Source of the DNA: a virus
Lineage: Duplodnaviria > Caudoviricetes
Length of the DNA: 31,149 nucleotides
Reading direction: 5' to 3' (one strand)
IMG/VR virus record: IMGVR_UViG_3300025571_000145
Span: 1 to 31,149 of that record
The stretch's first letter is position 1. Each line of letters begins with the position of its first letter. A model generated the notes under the pieces. That model ran no database searches. It was not told the origin of the DNA and was given only the letters and a program-made list of their open reading frames with translations. Shown here in pieces: positions 282 through 31,020 of this stretch. The position numbers and the translations under genes were made by a program.

Positions 282-332
282 CCCGAAATCTTGGCCGCAA
301 GCCCCGTCCTTCAGGGCGGGGTTAGGCCATCC

Positions 333-749
333 CTAGAGTGGTCTGCGCTGCTGTTCGATGTACTGGCGGATGATCTCCAAGGGTGCGCCGCCGCAGGATG
401 CGGCGAAGTAGGACGGCGACCACAGGTGTCCGTGCATGATGTGCCGGTTCATGTGGCCGGTGAACTCCTTGCGCAGAAGTCGGGCCGAGACGCCTTTGAG
501 GCTGTTCACCAGCTTTGATATGGCGACCTTTGGCGGATAGTGCACCAGTAGATGCACGTGGTCGTCTTCCCCGTTGAACTCGACAAGATCAGCCTCGAAG
601 TCGGCGCACACGTCCCGCATGATCTGCTCGCAGCGCTCAAGGATCTCGCCGGTCAGCGCTCCGCGCCGGTGCTTCGTCACGAAGACCAAATGGACGTGGA
701 GCGCTGAAACAACGTGTCTGCCGCGCCTATAGTCGGAATCATTCGCCAT
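333..749 (-). CDS. tnpA: IS200/IS605 Y1 (HUH) transposase
   Basis: 138 aa; HLVFVTKHRR, HUH motif DHVHLL, SLKGVS, LWSPSYF and catalytic helix YIEQQ. Confidence 0.96.
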   Translation of the reverse strand: MANDSDYRRGRHVVSALHVHLVFVTKHRRGALTGEILERCEQIMRDVCADFEADLVEFNGEDDHVHLLVHYPPKVAISKLVNSLKGVSARLLRKEFTGHMNRHIMHGHLWSPSYFAASCGGAPLEIIRQYIEQQRRPL

Positions 750-773
750 AGACCAAATGCTAGACTGGGTACC

Positions 774-1922
774 GTGCAGCTTCGGTACAACTTCCGCCTC
801 TACCCGACAGCCGGTCAGCGCGCCGCGTTGGCCAAGGCGTTCGGGTGCGCCCGGGTGGTATTCAACGACGGGCTGCGCTTACGGCAGGAAGCCCACGCGG
901 CCGGGCTGCCGTACATCAAGGACGCCGACCTGCAACGCCAGGTGATCACCGAGGCGAAGAAGACCCCGGAACGCTCCTGGCTGGGAGAGGTGTCCAACGT
1001 CGTGCTGGTGCAGTCGCTCAACGACCTGCACAAGGCGTACCGGGCGTTCTTCGCCTCGGTAACGGGCAAGCGCAAGGGGCCGAAGGTGGCCCCGCCCCGG
1101 TTCAAGTCGAAGAAGGACAACCGGCAGGCGATCCGACTCACCCGCAACGGCTTCAGCATCCGCCCAAACAGGCGGCTGTACGTGGCCAAGGTCGGCGAGA
1201 TAGAAGTCCGCTGGTCCCGTGCTCTGCCTGCCGAACCGTCGTCGGTAACGGTGGTCAAGGACGCGGCCGGACGGTACTTCGCGAGCTTCGTGGTAGAGGT
1301 CCCCGGCGAGCCGCTGCCGGAGACGACGGGTGAGGTTGGGATCGACCTGGGCCTGTCGCACTTCGCCGTGCTGTCGGACGGCAGGAAGATCGACAATCCG
1401 CGTTTCATCCGCCGAGCCGAACGCCGCCTGCGCAAGGCGCAAAAGGCACTGTCCCGCAAGCAGAAGGGCAGCGTGAACCGGGCCAAGGCCCGGGCCAGGG
1501 TCGCCAAGCTGCACGCCAAGTTGGCCGACGCGCGCCGGGACTGGGCACACAAGCTTTCCACGCAGATCATCCGCGAGAACCAAGCGGTATACGTGGAGAA
1601 CCTTTCTGTGTCCGGGCTCGCGCGCACGAGACTGGCCAAGAGCGTGCATGACGCGGGCTGGTCGCAGTTCGTCGCCATGCTTGAGTACAAAGCGGCCCGG
1701 TACGGGCGGACCTTCCACCAGATCGACCGCTGGTTTCCCAGCTCGAAGCTATGTTCCGCATGCGGGACGCTACAAGAGTCGATGCCGCTGAACGTCCGGG
1801 AGTGGACTTGCCCGTGTGGTGCGGTCCACGACCGGGACGTTAATGCTGCAAGGAACATCCTCGCCGCCGGGCGGGCGGAGAGGTTAAACGCCTGTGGAGG
1901 GACCGTAAGACCCGCCGCCTAG
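774..1922 (+). CDS. tnpB: RNA-guided endonuclease TnpB
   Basis: Start moved to GTG 774 (MQLRYNFRLYPT). RuvC-I GIDLG, RuvC-II VENL, zinc finger CSACG...CPCG, RuvC-III HDRDVNAARNI; all three acidic residues present. Confidence 0.96.
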   Translation: MQLRYNFRLYPTAGQRAALAKAFGCARVVFNDGLRLRQEAHAAGLPYIKDADLQRQVITEAKKTPERSWLGEVSNVVLVQSLNDLHKAYRAFFASVTGKRKGPKVAPPRFKSKKDNRQAIRLTRNGFSIRPNRRLYVAKVGEIEVRWSRALPAEPSSVTVVKDAAGRYFASFVVEVPGEPLPETTGEVGIDLGLSHFAVLSDGRKIDNPRFIRRAERRLRKAQKALSRKQKGSVNRAKARARVAKLHAKLADARRDWAHKLSTQIIRENQAVYVENLSVSGLARTRLAKSVHDAGWSQFVAMLEYKAARYGRTFHQIDRWFPSSKLCSACGTLQESMPLNVREWTCPCGAVHDRDVNAARNILAAGRAERLNACGGTVRPAA

Positions 1923-2036
1923 CGGAGGGCAGGACCCGGTGAAGCAGGAAGCCACAGAAGTGCCGCACGCGCGGCACAGGCTGAATCCCCGGCCTTCAGG
2001 CCGGGGAGCGCGTCAAAAAGATCAACCCTTCCGAAA
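1864..2036 (+). ncRNA. Predicted omegaRNA (reRNA) of first IS605 element; scaffold ~1864-2016, guide from 2017 (AAAGATCAACCCTTCC...)
   Basis: Overlaps tnpB 3' end and right end. 5' hairpin CCGCC-GGGCG-GGCGG whose loop can pair with CGTC(AA) at the terminus. RNA ends are inferred. Confidence 0.75.
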
Positions 2037-6415: not shown

Positions 6416-7124
6416 GCAGTACCGTGCCGCGCAGGCGCGTCTGGCGGCTCGGGTGACCCGTGACGTGCTGCGGCTGTGGCTGGACTCCTACCAGCCGCGG
6501 TCCCCGAACGTGTGGGAAGCGCTGATCGCCGCGCTGGTGGCGCTGATCTCGAGCTTCCGCCGCGAGTCGACCCGGTTGGCGACGAACTACTACCTCGAGT
6601 CACGCGCCGAGGCGCGGGTTCCGGGCCTGTTCGTGCCGTCGCCTGCTCCTGAGGCGCCGCGGGAGTGGATCGAGACCACAGCGCAGATCGCCGGCGCGCG
6701 CACGTATGGCCGTTCTCTGTCCGCCGATCTGCCTGAGCATCAGGCTCGGCAGAACGCCGGGGTCGCGCTGGCCGGGAGCATGGAGCGCATCGTCCTCGAC
6801 GCGGGCCGGCAGACCATCCTCGGCGCGGTCGATGAGGACCGGGAGGCGATCGGGTGGGCCCGGATCGGGGATGCGAACCCGTGCGCGTTCTGCGCGATGC
6901 TGATCAGTCGCGGGCCGGTGTACAGCGAGGCCACGGCGAAGTTCCAGAGCCATCCGCATTGTGCTTGCGTGGCGGCGCCTGTCTGGTCGCGGGACGAGGC
7001 GTGGCTGGGCCATTCCCGGGACCTGTATGAGCAGTGGCGGCGTGTGACGGCTGGTTATTCGGGTGCTGAGGCTCGGCGGGTGTGGCGTCGCTATTGGGAG
7101 GGCCGCGACCAGTCGGAGGAGTGA
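6390..7124 (+). CDS. MuF-like minor head / capsid maturation protein
   Basis: ATG 6390 overlapping portal end; GWARIGDANPCAFCAMLISRGPVY...HPHCAC Cys/His motif. Confidence 0.82.
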   Translation: MPSQNQLAEQYRAAQARLAARVTRDVLRLWLDSYQPRSPNVWEALIAALVALISSFRRESTRLATNYYLESRAEARVPGLFVPSPAPEAPREWIETTAQIAGARTYGRSLSADLPEHQARQNAGVALAGSMERIVLDAGRQTILGAVDEDREAIGWARIGDANPCAFCAMLISRGPVYSEATAKFQSHPHCACVAAPVWSRDEAWLGHSRDLYEQWRRVTAGYSGAEARRVWRRYWEGRDQSEE

Positions 7125-7127
7125 CGG

Positions 7128-7397
7128 ATGGCTGACCGTACCGCGGAGGAGATGCGCCGCCTGGTCCGCGAGGGCAAGGCGATGCGCACCGGCAGGGACG
7201 ATCCGCGGCCGGGCCGGTTCCCGATCGCGAACCGTGAGGATCTGCTGAACGCGATTCGCGCGGTGGGCCGGGTGCGGCCGAACACCGAGGAGGCGCGCGC
7301 TCGGGTGCGCCGGTTCATCATGCGGCGTGCGCGTGAGCTAGGGCTCGGGGAGCTGATTCCGCCGACGTGGAAGGCGGACGGCACGCTCGAGCGCTGA
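7128..7397 (+). CDS. Small conserved head-module protein (89 aa), function unknown
   Basis: GGAGG SD upstream; GRFPIANREDLLNAIRAVGR...IMRRARELGLGELIPPTW resembles a small domain recurrent in actinophage head modules (from recall). Confidence 0.8.
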   Translation: MADRTAEEMRRLVREGKAMRTGRDDPRPGRFPIANREDLLNAIRAVGRVRPNTEEARARVRRFIMRRARELGLGELIPPTWKADGTLER

Positions 7398-7398
7398 T

Positions 7399-7596
7399 CG
7401 AAATTCTTGGGCGCAGACCCCCGGCTTCAGCCGTGGGGTTAGCCCATGAACATCCTCGCCGCCGGGCTGGCGGTGACAGGGCGTGGAGACCTCGCCGTTG
7501 GGCGGTCTGTGAAGCGCCAACCACCCAAGGTAGAGGCAGCGTGAACGCGCCTCAGCCACGGGAATCCCCCGCCTTCAGGCGTGGGGAGGAAGTCAA
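7399..7596 (+). mobile_element. 198-bp non-autonomous IS605-family element (PATE-like) inserted 3' of TGAT
   Basis: Guide CAGA at +16..+19 (7414-7417) matches TGAT (7395-7398); LE hairpin CCCCCGGC-TTCA-GCCGTGGGG; TnpB C-terminal remnant MNILAAGLAVTGRG...VKRQPPKVEAA* from 7446; right end GAAT, hairpin, TCAA (7593-7596). Confidence 0.92.
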
Positions 7597-7616
7597 CTGA
7601 GGCTTTCTTGCCCCCT
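7459..7616 (+). ncRNA. Predicted stand-alone omegaRNA; scaffold ~7459-7596, guide from 7597 (CTGAGGCTTTCTTGCC...)
   Basis: 5' hairpin CCGCC-GGGCT-GGCGG, loop complementary to terminal AGTC(AA); GGCGTGGAGAC...GTCTGTGAAGCGCC stem; shares GAACATCCTCGCCGCCGGGC (7448-7467) with 1853-1872. Confidence 0.75.
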
Positions 7617-7620
7617 TGTG

Positions 7621-7652
7621 GGCCGGTTGGCCGTCATGGCTGCCGGCCTTTT
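7621..7652 (+). terminator. Possible intrinsic terminator/attenuator upstream of scaffold gene
   Basis: GGCCGGTTGGCC-GTCAT-GGCTGCCGGCC followed by TTTT. Confidence 0.5.
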
Positions 7653-7665
7653 GTGTTGTTGGCCT

Positions 7666-7702
7666 GGGCCGTCAGGGCCCCGGCCGTGGTCCCGGCATGG
7701 GA
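7666..7702 (+). promoter_or_regulatory. Tandem GNCA(T/G)-pentaloop hairpins covering the scaffold ribosome-binding site
   Basis: GGGCC-GTCAG-GGCCC (7666-7680) and TCCC-GGCAT-GGGA (7690-7702); GGGAG is the SD for GTG 7709. Confidence 0.6.
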
Positions 7703-7708
7703 GTTGAC

Positions 7709-8548
7709 GTGTCTGAATCTGTGGTGTCCGAGTCCCCTGCCGCCGAGGTGCCGGAGGCTGTGGCTGGCTCCGACGAGGATGCTGCGGCGGAGGCGATGCT
7801 TGCCGCAGCGGTGGCTGCCGAGTCTGAGGGTGATGGTGAGGCCGGCGAGGGGCGGCCGGAGCGTTCTGTGCGCCGGTCTGGCCGGGGGCGGCAGTCTGAC
7901 CGTGTGCCGGACGCCGAGCCCGGCGGCAAGGAGCCTGACGAGCCGCCCGCCGAGGCCGAGGTGGGCCCTGATGGGTACCCGCTGAACACGCCGGTCAAGG
8001 ACATGACGCCTGAGCAGCAGGCGGCGTATTGGCGTGCGCAGGCGAAGAAGCACGAGAAGGCCGTCAGGGCCTTCGGCCGGTTCCGGCCGGAGCAGGTCAA
8101 GGAGATGGCCGAGCGGCTGCGCGAGATCGAGGACGCGCAGAAAAGCGAGGCCGAGCGGCTCGCCGAGCGCCTGGCGGAGGTGGAGCGGCGCGCCCGGGAG
8201 GCGGAGCTCGCCAAGGCGAGGCTGCTGGCGGCGTCGGCGCATTCGGTGCCCGCGAGCCTGGTGGAGCGGCTCGCCGGCGAGACCGAGGAGGAGATCCTCG
8301 AGGCGGCGGAGGCGCTGGCCGAGGGGATCGACGCCGAGGTTGAGCGTCGGCTGGAGCCGCTGGTTGAGAAGCGGGTTGCGGAGCGGCTTGCCGAGCTCGA
8401 GCAGGAGCGGAAGCAGCAGGCCGCGGAGCGTGCCCGTGCTCGTGGCGGGTGGCCGGTGGAGTCGCTGCGGCCTGGTGCGATGCCGGCATCGGAGGACCCG
8501 GACCCGAATGAGGCGTTCCGCCAGTTCTTGATGGGTGGTCGCCGTTAG
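7709..8548 (+). CDS. Capsid scaffolding protein
   Basis: Probable GTG 7709; acidic disordered N-terminus, YWRAQAKKHE motif, coiled coil, LAGETEEEILEAAEAL; directly precedes major capsid gene. Confidence 0.88.
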   Translation: MSESVVSESPAAEVPEAVAGSDEDAAAEAMLAAAVAAESEGDGEAGEGRPERSVRRSGRGRQSDRVPDAEPGGKEPDEPPAEAEVGPDGYPLNTPVKDMTPEQQAAYWRAQAKKHEKAVRAFGRFRPEQVKEMAERLREIEDAQKSEAERLAERLAEVERRAREAELAKARLLAASAHSVPASLVERLAGETEEEILEAAEALAEGIDAEVERRLEPLVEKRVAERLAELEQERKQQAAERARARGGWPVESLRPGAMPASEDPDPNEAFRQFLMGGRR

Positions 8549-9578: not shown

Positions 9579-9702
9579 TCCCGCCTGGTTGCGGTGTGGG
9601 TGTTGGCGGCCGGTGCCGGCGCTGGTGGCGTGATGCGTGGGTGCCGGTGCCGGCCGCGGGGCCCTGGCTGGTTGTTGGTGTCTCCTGGATTGGAGTTGTG
9701 TG

Positions 9703-10719
9703 GTGCGCCTGTTGGCCATGCTCCACGCGTATCCGCCGCACCATAACGCGGGCGCGGAGTGGATGGTCCACACGATGTTGCGAGCCACGGTGGAGCGTGG
9801 CCACGAGGTGGACGTGGTGTTGTCGTCACGGCTGCAGGATGGGCCGTACGAGCTGGACGGGGTGCGTGTGCACCCGTACACCGGCAAGGGGGACCTGTTC
9901 CGGTTCTTGAACTCGGCGGATGCGCTGGTGACGCATCTGGAGTGCACGCGCCGGGCCATGGTGATCAGCCGGCTGCATGGTGTGCCGCTCATCCAGGTGC
10001 TGCACAACACGTTCGACCAGACGAGGAACTGGGTGCGCCGGGGCCCGTGTGCGCTGGCGGTTTACAACTCGGAGTGGATGCGCGCCGAGTTTGAGGCGTG
10101 GCTGGATTCGGTGCGTGCGCCGCGGCCGGATGCGGTGGTGGTGCGCCCGCCGGTGCTCGCCGAGGAGTACGCCACCAAGCCGGGTGACCGCGTCACGCTG
10201 ATCAACCTCTACCCGCCGAAGGGGTCGGGGACGTTCTGGCAGCTGGCCGAGCGGATGCCGGACGTGAAGTTTTTGGCGGTGATCGGCGGCTACGGCCCGC
10301 AGGACGTGCGGGAGCTGCCGAACGTGGAGGTCGTGCCGAACGTGCCGGGCCAGCGGATGCGGGATGAGGTGTATGCGCGCACCAAGATCCTGCTCATGCC
10401 GTCGGAGTATGAGTCGTGGGGGCGGGTCGGGGTGGAGGCGATGGCCTCCGGTATCCCGGTGATCGCGCACCCCACCCCGGGCCTGTGCGAGTCCCTCGGT
10501 GAGGCCGGGATCTTTGTGGACCGCGACGATTTGGACGGCTGGGAGCGGGAGATCCGCCGGCTGCTGACGCCGCGCGCCTACGGCACCGCCTCCAAGAAGG
10601 CGAAGGCGCGGTCGGCGGAGCTGGATCCGGCGCCGGATCTGGAGCGGTGGGTGGCGGCCGCGGAGATGGTCGCGGCGCAGCGTGACCGGATGCGCATGCT
10701 CGCCCGGCTGACGCACTAA
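9703..10719 (+). CDS. Glycosyltransferase family 4 (GT-B), copy 1
   Basis: Start GTG 9703 chosen by alignment with copy 2 (MRLLAMLHAYPPHHNAGAE); KG motif and E-X7-E motif in LMPSEYESWGRVGVEAMASGIPVI. Confidence 0.92.
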   Translation: MRLLAMLHAYPPHHNAGAEWMVHTMLRATVERGHEVDVVLSSRLQDGPYELDGVRVHPYTGKGDLFRFLNSADALVTHLECTRRAMVISRLHGVPLIQVLHNTFDQTRNWVRRGPCALAVYNSEWMRAEFEAWLDSVRAPRPDAVVVRPPVLAEEYATKPGDRVTLINLYPPKGSGTFWQLAERMPDVKFLAVIGGYGPQDVRELPNVEVVPNVPGQRMRDEVYARTKILLMPSEYESWGRVGVEAMASGIPVIAHPTPGLCESLGEAGIFVDRDDLDGWEREIRRLLTPRAYGTASKKAKARSAELDPAPDLERWVAAAEMVAAQRDRMRMLARLTH

Positions 10720-11352: not shown

Positions 11353-12342
11353 ATGCGGGTTTTGGCGCGGTTCCACGCCTACGTGCCGGAGCACGGCGGC
11401 GGGGCGGAGGTGATGGCGCACACGCTCCTGCGTGAGCTGGTGGCGCGTGGCCACCAGGTGCGGGTGTGGCTGTCCCAGCACAACGGGCGGCGCGAGCCGT
11501 ACCGGGTGGACGGGGTCGAGGTGATCCCGGTCAAGGCGCGGCAGGATTTCCTGCGCTTGGCGCGGGATAGCGATGTGGTGGTCTCGCATCTGGAGAACGT
11601 GCGGGCAGCGGCGGCGGCCGCGCGCGGCTGGGGCCGCCCGCTGGTGGTGTTGTGCCACAACACTTTCCCCGCCACCTTCTCCGCGGTCGGGTCTGGCACG
11701 ACCGCGCTGGCGGTCTACAACAGCCAGTGGATGGCGGCGGAAGCCGAGCGATGGTTCGCGGAGAACCCTAAGGCCGCGCGTCCGCTGGCGAGTGTGGTGG
11801 TCCGGCCGCCGGTGCGCGCAGCCGACTACCGCACCACCCCCGGCGACCACATCACGCTGGTCAACCTGCACAAGCCCAAGGGCGGGGATGTGCTGTGGCG
11901 GCTCGCCGAGCGCATGCCGAACCACCGGTTCCTCGCCGTCAAGGGCGCCTACGGTGAGCAGATCGTCGGGCAGGCGCCGAATGTTGAGGTGGTCGAGCAT
12001 GTGCCGCCGGCGCAGATGGCCGAGCGGGTGTATGCGCGCACCCGTGTGCTGATCATGCCGAGCGAGTATGAGTCGTGGGGTCGGGTCGGGGTGGAGGCGA
12101 TGGCCTCCGGTATCCCGGTCGTGGCCACCCCCACCCCGGGCCTGTGCGAGTCCCTCGGTGAGGCCGGGATTTTCGTCGAGCGTGATGACCTGGACGGCTG
12201 GGTGGCGGCGCTCACCGCGCTCGACGACGCGGAGGCGTGGCAGGCCGCGTCGAAGCAGGCTAAGGCCCGGGTGCGTCAGCTCGACCCTGCCGCGGACCTG
12301 GCGCGGTGGGTTGAGGCGGTCGAGAGGCTGGGCCGGCGATGA
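11353..12342 (+). CDS. Glycosyltransferase family 4 (GT-B), copy 2
   Basis: GGGAE N-terminal loop, KPKGG, IMPSEYESWGRVGVEAMASGIPVV; ATG abuts adaptor TAG and its TGA overlaps the next ATG. Confidence 0.92.
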   Translation: MRVLARFHAYVPEHGGGAEVMAHTLLRELVARGHQVRVWLSQHNGRREPYRVDGVEVIPVKARQDFLRLARDSDVVVSHLENVRAAAAAARGWGRPLVVLCHNTFPATFSAVGSGTTALAVYNSQWMAAEAERWFAENPKAARPLASVVVRPPVRAADYRTTPGDHITLVNLHKPKGGDVLWRLAERMPNHRFLAVKGAYGEQIVGQAPNVEVVEHVPPAQMAERVYARTRVLIMPSEYESWGRVGVEAMASGIPVVATPTPGLCESLGEAGIFVERDDLDGWVAALTALDDAEAWQAASKQAKARVRQLDPAADLARWVEAVERLGRR

Positions 12343-24079: not shown

Positions 24080-24132
24080 CGAAATTCTTGGGCGCAGCAC
24101 CCCGGCTTCAGCCGTGGGGTTAGCCCATCCCT
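24080..24132 (+). mobile_element. Orphan IS605-family left end inserted 3' of TGAT
   Basis: 24080-24128 matches 7399-7447 at 47/49 positions, both preceded by CTGAT; no tnpB remnant or GAAT-hairpin-TCAA right end follows. Confidence 0.88.
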
Positions 24133-24173
24133 CTCGATCCTCAGACATTAGATAGATGTGCGGGGAGGTGCCG

Positions 24174-29534: not shown

Positions 29535-29735
29535 TCAGGCCGGGGGTGAATGCGACCCCTGCGGAGCAGGGCAAGGAAAGCCGTTACGCTCTTGGGCGGA
29601 ACGGCGTTCAGCCTCTTCGACGGCACGCCGCACTACGGCGATCAACCAGGAGTTCAGGGAGCGGTCGTCGGCGGCGGCAGCGGCCTTGGCGCGCTCGTGC
29701 AGATCGTCGGGCAGTCTCAGGTTCACATGCTTCAT
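29535..29735 (-). CDS. Ribbon-helix-helix (Arc/CopG/HicB-like) DNA-binding protein
   Basis: MKHVNLRLPDDLHERAKAAAAADDRSLNSWLIAVVRRAV: alternating beta strand, helix, RSLN turn, helix; divergent from tnpB. Confidence 0.88.
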   Translation of the reverse strand: MKHVNLRLPDDLHERAKAAAAADDRSLNSWLIAVVRRAVEEAERRSAQERNGFPCPAPQGSHSPPA

Positions 29736-29763
29736 GGGATCATTGTGATGCTAAGATGGTCCC

Positions 29764-30954
29764 ATGTCGAGGTTTCGGATGTACCCCACGCCGCAGCAGG
29801 AGCAGCAGATGCTTCTGCACTGCGCGCACGCCCGGTACGTGTGGAACCTCGCTGTCGAACAGCAGTCGTTTTGGCGTCCGGGCCGCAGGTCCGCGCCAGG
29901 GTTCGCCGAGCAGTGCCGCCAGCTCACCGAGGCCCGCGCCGTGTTCGACTGGCTGCGCGCCGGGTCGGTGAACATCCAGCAGCAGGCGCTCAGGGACTTC
30001 GCCCAGGCGATGGCGAACTACTTCGCCGGGACGCACAGGCGGCCGACCTGGCGCAAGGCGGGACGGCATGAGGGATTCCGTGTCGTCGGCAAGGATTACC
30101 GCGTACGCAAGGTATCCCGGAAGGTCGGCGAGGTCTGGGTGCCCAAAGCGGGATGGGTGCGGTTCCGCCTGTCACGCCCGCTTCCACCGGAAGCGAAGTC
30201 GTACCGGATCACCCGGGACCGTGCGGGCCGTTGGCACGTGGCGTTCGCCGTCGCGCCACACCCGATCCCCGCGCCGGGCACGGGCGAGATAGTCGGGGTG
30301 GACCGGGGTGTCGCCGTGTCGGTGGCGCTGTCCACCGGGGAACTGCTGACCGCGCCAGGCCTGCGCGAGACGGAGAAAGCACGGCTGCGCCGGTTGCAGC
30401 GGAAACTCGCCCGAGCTAAGCGAGGATCTAACCGGCGGGCGCGGGTCAAGCTGGCCATCGCCCGGCTGAGGGCCCGTGAGAGCGATCGGCGCAAGGACTG
30501 GGTGGAGAAGACCTCCACCGACCTCGCGCGCCGGTTCGACATGATCGTCGTCGAGGACCTGAAGATCTCCAACATGATCCGCTCGGCGAAAGGCACCCTC
30601 GACGCGCCGGGCCGTAACGTCCGGCAGAAGTCTGGGCTCAACCGGAGCATCCTCGCCGCCGGGTGGGGACAGCTCGTAACCCGCCTGGAGCACAAGGCTC
30701 CGGGAAGGGTCGTGAAGGTCAATCCCGCGTACACGAGCCAGCGTTGCTCGGCGTGCGGGATCGTGGACCGGGAAGCGCGCGAGAGCCAAGCACGTTACCG
30801 GTGCCGGTCCTGCGGATACGCCGCCAACGCTGATGTGAACGCGGCCAGGAACATCAGGGATACCGCCGCAGGGCATGCGGTGGCTGCGCGGGAAGGGCTT
30901 CGGGTTGCCAGGCCGATGCACCGCGAACCTCAGCCCGTCCTCCTCTCTGTGTAG
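29764..30954 (+). CDS. tnpB: RNA-guided endonuclease TnpB
   Basis: RFRMYPT start, RuvC-I GVDRG, RuvC-II VEDL, YTSQRCSACG...CRSCG, RuvC-III NADVNAARNI; catalytic residues intact. Confidence 0.96.
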   Translation: MSRFRMYPTPQQEQQMLLHCAHARYVWNLAVEQQSFWRPGRRSAPGFAEQCRQLTEARAVFDWLRAGSVNIQQQALRDFAQAMANYFAGTHRRPTWRKAGRHEGFRVVGKDYRVRKVSRKVGEVWVPKAGWVRFRLSRPLPPEAKSYRITRDRAGRWHVAFAVAPHPIPAPGTGEIVGVDRGVAVSVALSTGELLTAPGLRETEKARLRRLQRKLARAKRGSNRRARVKLAIARLRARESDRRKDWVEKTSTDLARRFDMIVVEDLKISNMIRSAKGTLDAPGRNVRQKSGLNRSILAAGWGQLVTRLEHKAPGRVVKVNPAYTSQRCSACGIVDREARESQARYRCRSCGYAANADVNAARNIRDTAAGHAVAAREGLRVARPMHREPQPVLLSV

Positions 30955-31020
30955 AGCGACGGGTTGGAATCCCCCGCCTTCAGGCGGGGGAGGATGTCAA
31001 ACGGAAACGATGATCACCCG
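30866..31020 (+). ncRNA. Predicted omegaRNA of second tnpB element; scaffold ~30866-31000, guide from 31001 (ACGGAAACGATGATCA...)
   Basis: 5' hairpin CCGCA-GGGCA-TGCGG with loop complementary to terminal TGTC(AA). Confidence 0.72.

Follow-up and report, generated by a model that had tools for sequence, protein, structure and literature searches.

A protein-less 198-bp IS605 derivative between two head-region genes of a virus, with two transposon ends and an omegaRNA predicted to be complete

Elements of the PATE kind, which carry no protein gene, have been described from Haloquadratum walsbyi, Halanaerobium hydrogeniformans and Geobacillus stearothermophilus. The PATEs of H. walsbyi have near-terminal palindromes and no terminal inverted repeats, cause no target duplication, are too short for a transposase and arise from IS605-type elements that lose their core; many of them occur in multiple copies, and for several the deletion was repeat-mediated (PMC3119063). 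The 271-nt IS605 PATE-like element of H. hydrogeniformans, described before omegaRNAs were known, is a single chromosomal copy (28 + 58 + 160 nt) with a short hairpin left end, no tnpA, a tnpB tail and a whole right end (PMC7290912). According to Meers et al. (10.1101/2023.03.14.532601), PATEs often encode omegaRNAs that need TnpB in trans; in Geobacillus, a single TnpA proved able to excise several IS families, and elements are retained there through TnpB, which cuts the sites left empty. The PATE-like elements of G. stearothermophilus in that study keep both ends and the omegaRNA, have no protein gene, and are predicted to use TnpA and TnpB in trans. Two related systems are the standalone omegaRNAs of OMEGA systems, guide RNAs without an effector that share a genome with one and are reported to be active in trans when the effector is compatible (PMC10691335), and a plasmid IS605 TnpB gene drive, in which inheritance is biased because empty sister replicons are cut and the TnpB lies inside the element (10.1101/2025.02.20.638934). 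The words 'phage', 'PATE' and 'in trans' are absent from the main text of the latter study, and no passage on PATEs was found in a review on OMEGA homing (PMC13565253). The PATE literature leaves the arming of TnpB by omegaRNAs in trans mostly at prediction, and our literature search, in which subscription papers and preprint supplements were incompletely covered, found no PATE omegaRNA tested in a phage.

We have analysed a whole viral record of 31,149 bp (the window), whose + strand carries terminase, portal, head, tail and lysis genes. A protein-less IS605 derivative of 198 bp, here called M1, lies at 7399-7596 between two phage head-region genes, and the original prediction of such an element with a TGAT flank, a CAGA guide and a TCAA end is thereby confirmed. 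M1 is an example of the PATE kind already described, and every sequence-level feature in the definition (PMC3119063) is present in it. There are near-terminal palindromes at both ends (DNA hairpins 7418-7438 and 7566-7586, alike at 19 of 21 positions in direct orientation); terminal inverted repeats are absent (self-BLAST gave no inverted end match); there is no target-site duplication, a contig joining 7398 directly to 7597 with the insertion 3' of TGAT; 198 bp is too short for a transposase or nuclease gene; and the ends are common to an IS605-type parent, with identities of 49/49 and 149/149. M1 therefore has the features listed above for the H. walsbyi PATEs, but it occupies a single site and has zero microhomology at its junction. 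It has the same parts as the H. hydrogeniformans element and is likewise single, although that element is chromosomal. The composition is also that of the G. stearothermophilus elements, from which M1 differs by its place in a phage late operon, its single site, an exact parent, a co-occurring empty allele and its other IS family (TGAT). Unlike the standalone omegaRNAs of OMEGA systems, M1 and its cognate TnpB are known from separate records. An IStron was considered and rejected: the left part of M1 is only a 49-bp transposon end, and a search of Rfam found nothing at 7399-7616 with E up to 1. The coordinates of all features are given in Table 1.

Table 1. Positions of M1 and other features in the 31,149-bp window
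Feature	Position	Strand	Basis or remark
E1: unrelated IS605 element, divergent tnpA 333-749, tnpB to 1922	283-2016	+	flank TGAC
89-aa conserved head-region ORF	7128-7397	+	ORF; relatives in 32 viral loci
TAM, TGAT	7395-7398	+	sequence; TGAT precedes 14 of 16 family left ends
M1, PATE-like	7399-7596	+	parent prefix 49 + suffix 149 = 198; one contig skips exactly 7399-7596
M1 left end, 49 bp: presumed DNA guide CAGA 7414-7417, subterminal hairpin 7418-7438	7399-7447	+	parent-identical; DNA fold -13.1 kcal/mol
32-codon frame: junction-made ATG + last 31 tnpB codons	7446-7544	+	likely no gene
Predicted omegaRNA scaffold, 141 nt	7456-7596	+	pair counts, 37 family sequences
Stem 1; loop strand 7465-7468 pairs with 7591-7594 as predicted pseudoknot	7456-7476	+	93.4% paired
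Stems 2 and 3	7480-7518	+	98.4% and 93.2% paired; two-sided changes in 4/5 and 3/8 pairs
Variable stem-loop	7524-7562	+	only 60% paired in modelled register
M1 right end: presumed DNA guide GAAT, hairpin 7566-7586, terminal TCAA 7593-7596	7562-7596	+	no family conservation beyond TCAA
Predicted RNA guide = phage right flank	7597-7612	+	position relative to right end
Head scaffolding protein gene, likely GTG start 7709	7709-8548	+	PHROG 1793, E 1e-15; start inferred from relatives
M2: 78-bp left-end-only relic of M1's parent, after TGAT	24080-24157	+	also in L042
E2: unrelated tnpB element, tnpB 29764-30954, small Arc-like gene	29535-31000	+	left boundary provisional

The TGA of the TGAT at 7395-7398 doubles as the stop codon of the 89-aa ORF upstream, and thus M1 breaks no reading frame. 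This ORF has the head maturation gene on one side and the scaffolding gene on the other, and it matched no PHROG or Pfam family. According to the TnpA pairing rule of the IS608 literature, CAGA presumably pairs with TGAT and GAAT with TCAA, and we take these tetranucleotides to be the DNA guides on that ground. No TnpA sequence is left in M1, and TnpB is represented by residues 367-397 only. The fused tnpB tail noted in the original prediction is therefore present, with 31 codons in place of the 32 proposed; the apparent first codon, the ATG at 7446, was created by the junction, and the parent reads AAG there.

A scan of viral contigs for the left end of M1 recovered the parent, a 1,743-bp tnpA-tnpB IS605 element in a provirus record (L035), in which the left end is followed by tnpA (132 aa), tnpB (397 aa) and the right end. 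M1 consists of the first 49 and the last 149 bases of this element at 100% identity, which places a fusion previously put at about 7447 exactly at 7447/7448. Microhomology at the junction is 0, and a microhomology-mediated origin of the deletion was therefore rejected. The parent TnpA and TnpB have full Pfam domains, and what we take to be their usual catalytic residues are visible by eye. The parent TnpB is 45% identical to the TnpB of E2 and 31% identical to that of E1, so that the third cognate TnpB expected elsewhere does exist, outside the window. Its closest named relatives are a protein of Thermocrispum municipale (91% identical) and proteins of Streptosporangiales (79-82%), from which we infer an actinomycete host. 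A 578-bp contig in an Algoriphagus assembly (L085), which matches part of the parent TnpB at 99% identity, is likely contamination.

The left-end scan of metagenomes gave eight loci: two of M1 at the same phage site, one of M2 and five parents, two of them complete at 98% identity and three cut by contig ends. Together with the two viral matches, these comprise three M1 at the same site, one M2, six parents and no M1 elsewhere. The parent family has moved recently, because the parent occupies at least five different sites (including that in L035), all after TGAT, with the flank of one locus too short to judge. Partial M1 matches were found in 8 records of the phage collection and in 19 of the plasmid collection, none covering 80%, and one plasmid matches the parent at 75% identity over a third of the parent length. 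No parent copy is present on the phage record, and a 74-kb contig holding the M1 region has the left ends of M1 and M2 only. In two runs (X3 and X4), contigs are unbroken through the 149 parent-identical bases of M1, among the pieces listed and with the proviso that contigs omit rare variants, which suggests that these runs hold little or no parent sequence. Conversely, in the listed contigs of run X20 the parent is present and the phage flank absent. The cognate TnpB was thus found in other records, and was not seen together with the phage flanks.

The omegaRNA of M1 was modelled by analogy with the ISDra2 architecture (PMC10097598), without alignment to ISDra2, and its structure was drawn from M1 itself. 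The model comprises stem 1, the pseudoknot, stems 2 and 3, the variable stem and the hairpin of the right end. When 37 family sequences, including M1 and the parent, were placed on this model, 84.0% of cells were paired. Two-sided changes were found in 19 of 47 pairs, compared with 9.2 +/- 1.9 in shuffles that ignore kinship, and 0 of 500 shuffles reached the observed value. In the predicted pseudoknot, pairing is 99.3%, with a two-sided change in one of the four pairs. Covariation therefore gives good, though not rigorous, support to the predicted scaffold and pseudoknot. Stem 1 is separated from the junction by 8 nt, not about 12 as had been estimated, and thus the modelled scaffold loses nothing; in ISDra2 the 5' part upstream of the scaffold is dispensable (PMC10097598). 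The original prediction is accordingly supported in that M1 is an IS605 derivative without a protein gene, has kept its two ends and carries an omegaRNA that is whole as predicted. The same prediction held that the scaffold differs from the two local tnpB elements beyond its first ~25 nt. Overall it is indeed only 62-63% identical to both, but the likeness is not limited to that part, since the 3' hairpin also matches, at 34/36 positions for the element ending at 31000 and at 29/35 for that ending at 2016. Family conservation ends after TCAA, and therefore the flanking phage sequence is predicted to serve as the guide, with the empty site as its target. TGAT followed by the 8-nt seed is absent as a target within the window itself. 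Contigs of two metatranscriptomes cover M1; such RNA-library contigs may derive from DNA and show neither strand nor ends.

M1 is identical in three other assemblies (L001, L036 and L040), at the same site in all three. Among the 32 loci carrying the 89-aa protein, one, an identical second assembly, matches M1; it is absent from the other 31, including four phages at ~90% identity and one locus that ends 37 nt after the gene. Single contigs span all of M1 in two of four RNA-library runs (X3 and X4), and unbroken contigs cross 7447/7448 in three of the four. In run X4 an empty allele was also found, as one 72-nt contig, with a short side of 29 nt that falls under the 30-nt caution line, which joins 7398 to 7597 and skips exactly 198 bases. 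This run therefore holds the filled and empty alleles together, and thus a target exists. The empty-allele contig differs by one further base, at a position inferred as 7609 (guide position 13) from the start and stop points of neighbouring contigs; this difference points more to a sister haplotype than to a fresh excision. Nine viral-contig matches to the empty-site motif were rejected as chance, being one unrelated virus group of 48-50% GC in which only 13 guide bases match, with no other likeness to the window.

Among the loose contig ends listed for the four RNA-library runs, none joins M1 to another flank; all derive from M2, from the parent or from different elements. A full-length parent at 7398 was not found in the contigs and assemblies examined. 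The exact left-end pattern had no match in genome contigs. A pattern fitted to M1's subgroup gave two viral matches (M1 and the parent) and matched 2/401 and 4/301 genomes, and a version with a spacer one base longer, which detects the sister subgroup only, gave six genome matches and no viral one.

The phage contains a further piece of the same parent, M2, which was not mentioned in the original prediction although its left end, at 24080, is near-identical to that of M1 (52/54 aligned bases, flank included). M2 starts 11 nt past the stop of the distal-tail gene, before the next tail gene, and has no right end; its DNA guide is changed by an AC-to-CA swap at positions 19-20 of M2. In a related phage, the TGAT at this place is present and nothing is inserted after it. 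M2 shows that the same parent entered the phage twice and was trimmed here also. An origin of M2 by precise mis-excision at an internal AGAT is not supported: the related phage has 23 nt from TGAT to the next start and only 16 nt follow M2, which fits an imprecise deletion.

The other two IS605 pieces, E1 and E2, each with a full tnpB, stand at the two ends of the phage record. The TnpA of E1 (Pfam Y1_Tnp) is intact-looking and 42% identical to the parent TnpA. In E2, a 66-aa Arc-like ribbon-helix-helix ORF (29535-29735, - strand; Pfam Arc, E 8e-7) is divergent from tnpB. A 2026 preprint is said to deal with Arc in IS605 elements. All four pieces share the late-operon orientation, and at both E1 (TAM 279-282) and M1 (7395-7398) the TGA of the TAM is the stop of the upstream gene, namely an HNH gene and the 89-aa ORF. 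Among 69 classified loci of the family, nine are internally deleted and keep both ends, with lengths of 575-1,669 bp. The short derivatives known are only four, namely M1, M2 and two from bacterial genomes, L142 and L248; omegaRNA-pattern scans of the family select for omegaRNA retention. L142 (1497-1718), an independent mini-element of 222 bp, breaks at stem 1 and retains the greater part of the scaffold. L248, in which the element follows 2004, is a mini-element of 155 bp that has lost the 5' half of the scaffold.

We favour, with somewhat better than even confidence, the reading that the parent inserted whole and was trimmed in place, and that the M1 omegaRNA would direct the parent TnpB to cut phages with an empty site. 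The most likely history, and the simplest, is one of two full-parent insertions at intergenic TGAT sites, each later trimmed in place. At M1, the full 1,743-bp parent would likely have inserted after TGAT at the stop codon of the head gene, and a 1,545-bp core would likely then have been lost in place. What remains is a pair of intact-looking ends with an omegaRNA that is predicted to be complete. The M1 RNA, lying on the same strand, may be made by late-operon read-through, because a scan for sigma-70 types found no promoter-like site in 6900-7900 and the upstream region of the parent is deleted. A TnpA could excise M1 cleanly. The original prediction had M1 borrow its TnpA in trans; the protein need not come from elsewhere, as an intact-looking tnpA (333-749) is carried by the same phage, and the TnpA of E1 is a candidate because one TnpA excised several IS families in Geobacillus. 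The parent TnpB would load the M1 RNA and cut TGAT plus right flank in empty-site phages, and repair from a filled genome might then restore or spread the insert. The TnpB of E1 would likely not cut the TGAT site, because the flank of E1 is TGAC and single-base changes in the TAM abolish cleavage (10.1101/2023.03.14.532601). If the parent is not in the cell, M1 would be a nearly neutral passenger. We think it rather improbable that M1 goes further and acts as a guide-only gene drive, in which the RNA of a 198-bp cassette would arm a host TnpB against co-infecting element-free sister phages and so copy itself in; the cut would fall in the head operon of the sister phages, and the phage would have shed 1.5 kb and kept 198 bp. 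On this bolder reading, the extra base of the empty allele, probably at guide position 13, could amount to a partial escape. Such a proposal resembles the plasmid IS605 drive (10.1101/2025.02.20.638934), which concerns plasmids and keeps TnpB inside the element.

M1 may also be an inert relic, its omegaRNA spared by accident or by hairpin-favoured breakpoints and its RNA never loaded or never meeting TnpB, and we regard this as a quite possible, though not a probable, explanation. Other trimmed copies did lose scaffold (the 5' half in L248, the whole right end in M2), contigs of the two runs spanning M1 (X3 and X4) show no sign of the parent, the empty allele persists beside the filled one, and the promoter scan was negative. 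However, M1 has zero mutations relative to the parent, with both ends and all stems intact, while M2 has decayed (the lack of mutations may only reflect a recent origin), both of its breakpoints lie ~8-9 nt from essential hairpins, and the independent 222-bp L142 also breaks at stem 1. Active mobility as a minimal cassette, formed elsewhere, moved here by TnpA as a 198-bp unit and with sisters in the host, was the original prediction and now appears unlikely. It would suit the intact ends, DNA guides and TGAT flank, the exactness of the empty allele, and the view that PATEs are often transposable in trans (PMC7290912). The 49/149 junction pattern, however, had no match in genome contigs and one in viral contigs, at this same phage site, with the host genome outside the search, and 0 of 10 left-end matches (eight metagenome, two viral) is an M1 elsewhere; the scans thus yielded the full-length parent that had been anticipated, but not a sister copy at a second site.

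Domestication by the phage, whether to supply a guide for superinfection exclusion or a regulatory spacer that tunes scaffold and capsid expression, we consider very unlikely. In its favour, the operon in which M1 stands is conserved and essential, conserved motifs are repeated in the leader that directly follows M1, and the guide of M1 matches its own flank only. Against it, M1 has no match in 31 of the 32 related loci, is polymorphic within one sample and shows no conservation beyond the sequence of the parent. Least credible of all is an assembly artefact in which a full-length element was collapsed. Multi-copy IS elements can indeed be mis-joined in metagenome assemblies, but the same junction recurs in three other assemblies and in unbroken contigs of three of the four runs, and there is no microhomology to cause a collapse.

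On the reading that we favour, of insertion followed by trimming in place, M1 is a clean and ordinary case of IS605 shrinkage in phage genomes, for which the parent, the exact junction, the empty allele and a second relic are known. The set is a convenient natural test of whether a protein-less PATE omegaRNA arms TnpB in trans and biases inheritance between phages. M1 is also a near-minimal natural unit (a 49-bp left end and a 141-nt scaffold) for a TGAT-targeting TnpB from compost and bioreactor communities.

Three further features of the phage may be mentioned. One contig of run X4 has a 28-nt CRISPR-repeat-like end joined to phage sequence at 7306, which suggests a host spacer against the phage; the repeat resembles, in our judgement, type I-E. 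Within the structural module, two glycosyltransferase-like genes (9637-10719 and 11353-12342) lie on either side of the head-tail adaptor and possibly serve virion glycosylation. In the leader of the scaffolding gene (7597-7712), a CCG(A/T/G)CATGG-like motif occurs three times, and its final copy is fused to the ribosome-binding site. The motif is present in three to four copies (up to two mismatches), with invariant columns, in all five related phage leaders tested, and it may serve a control function as a conserved RNA element or protein-binding site.
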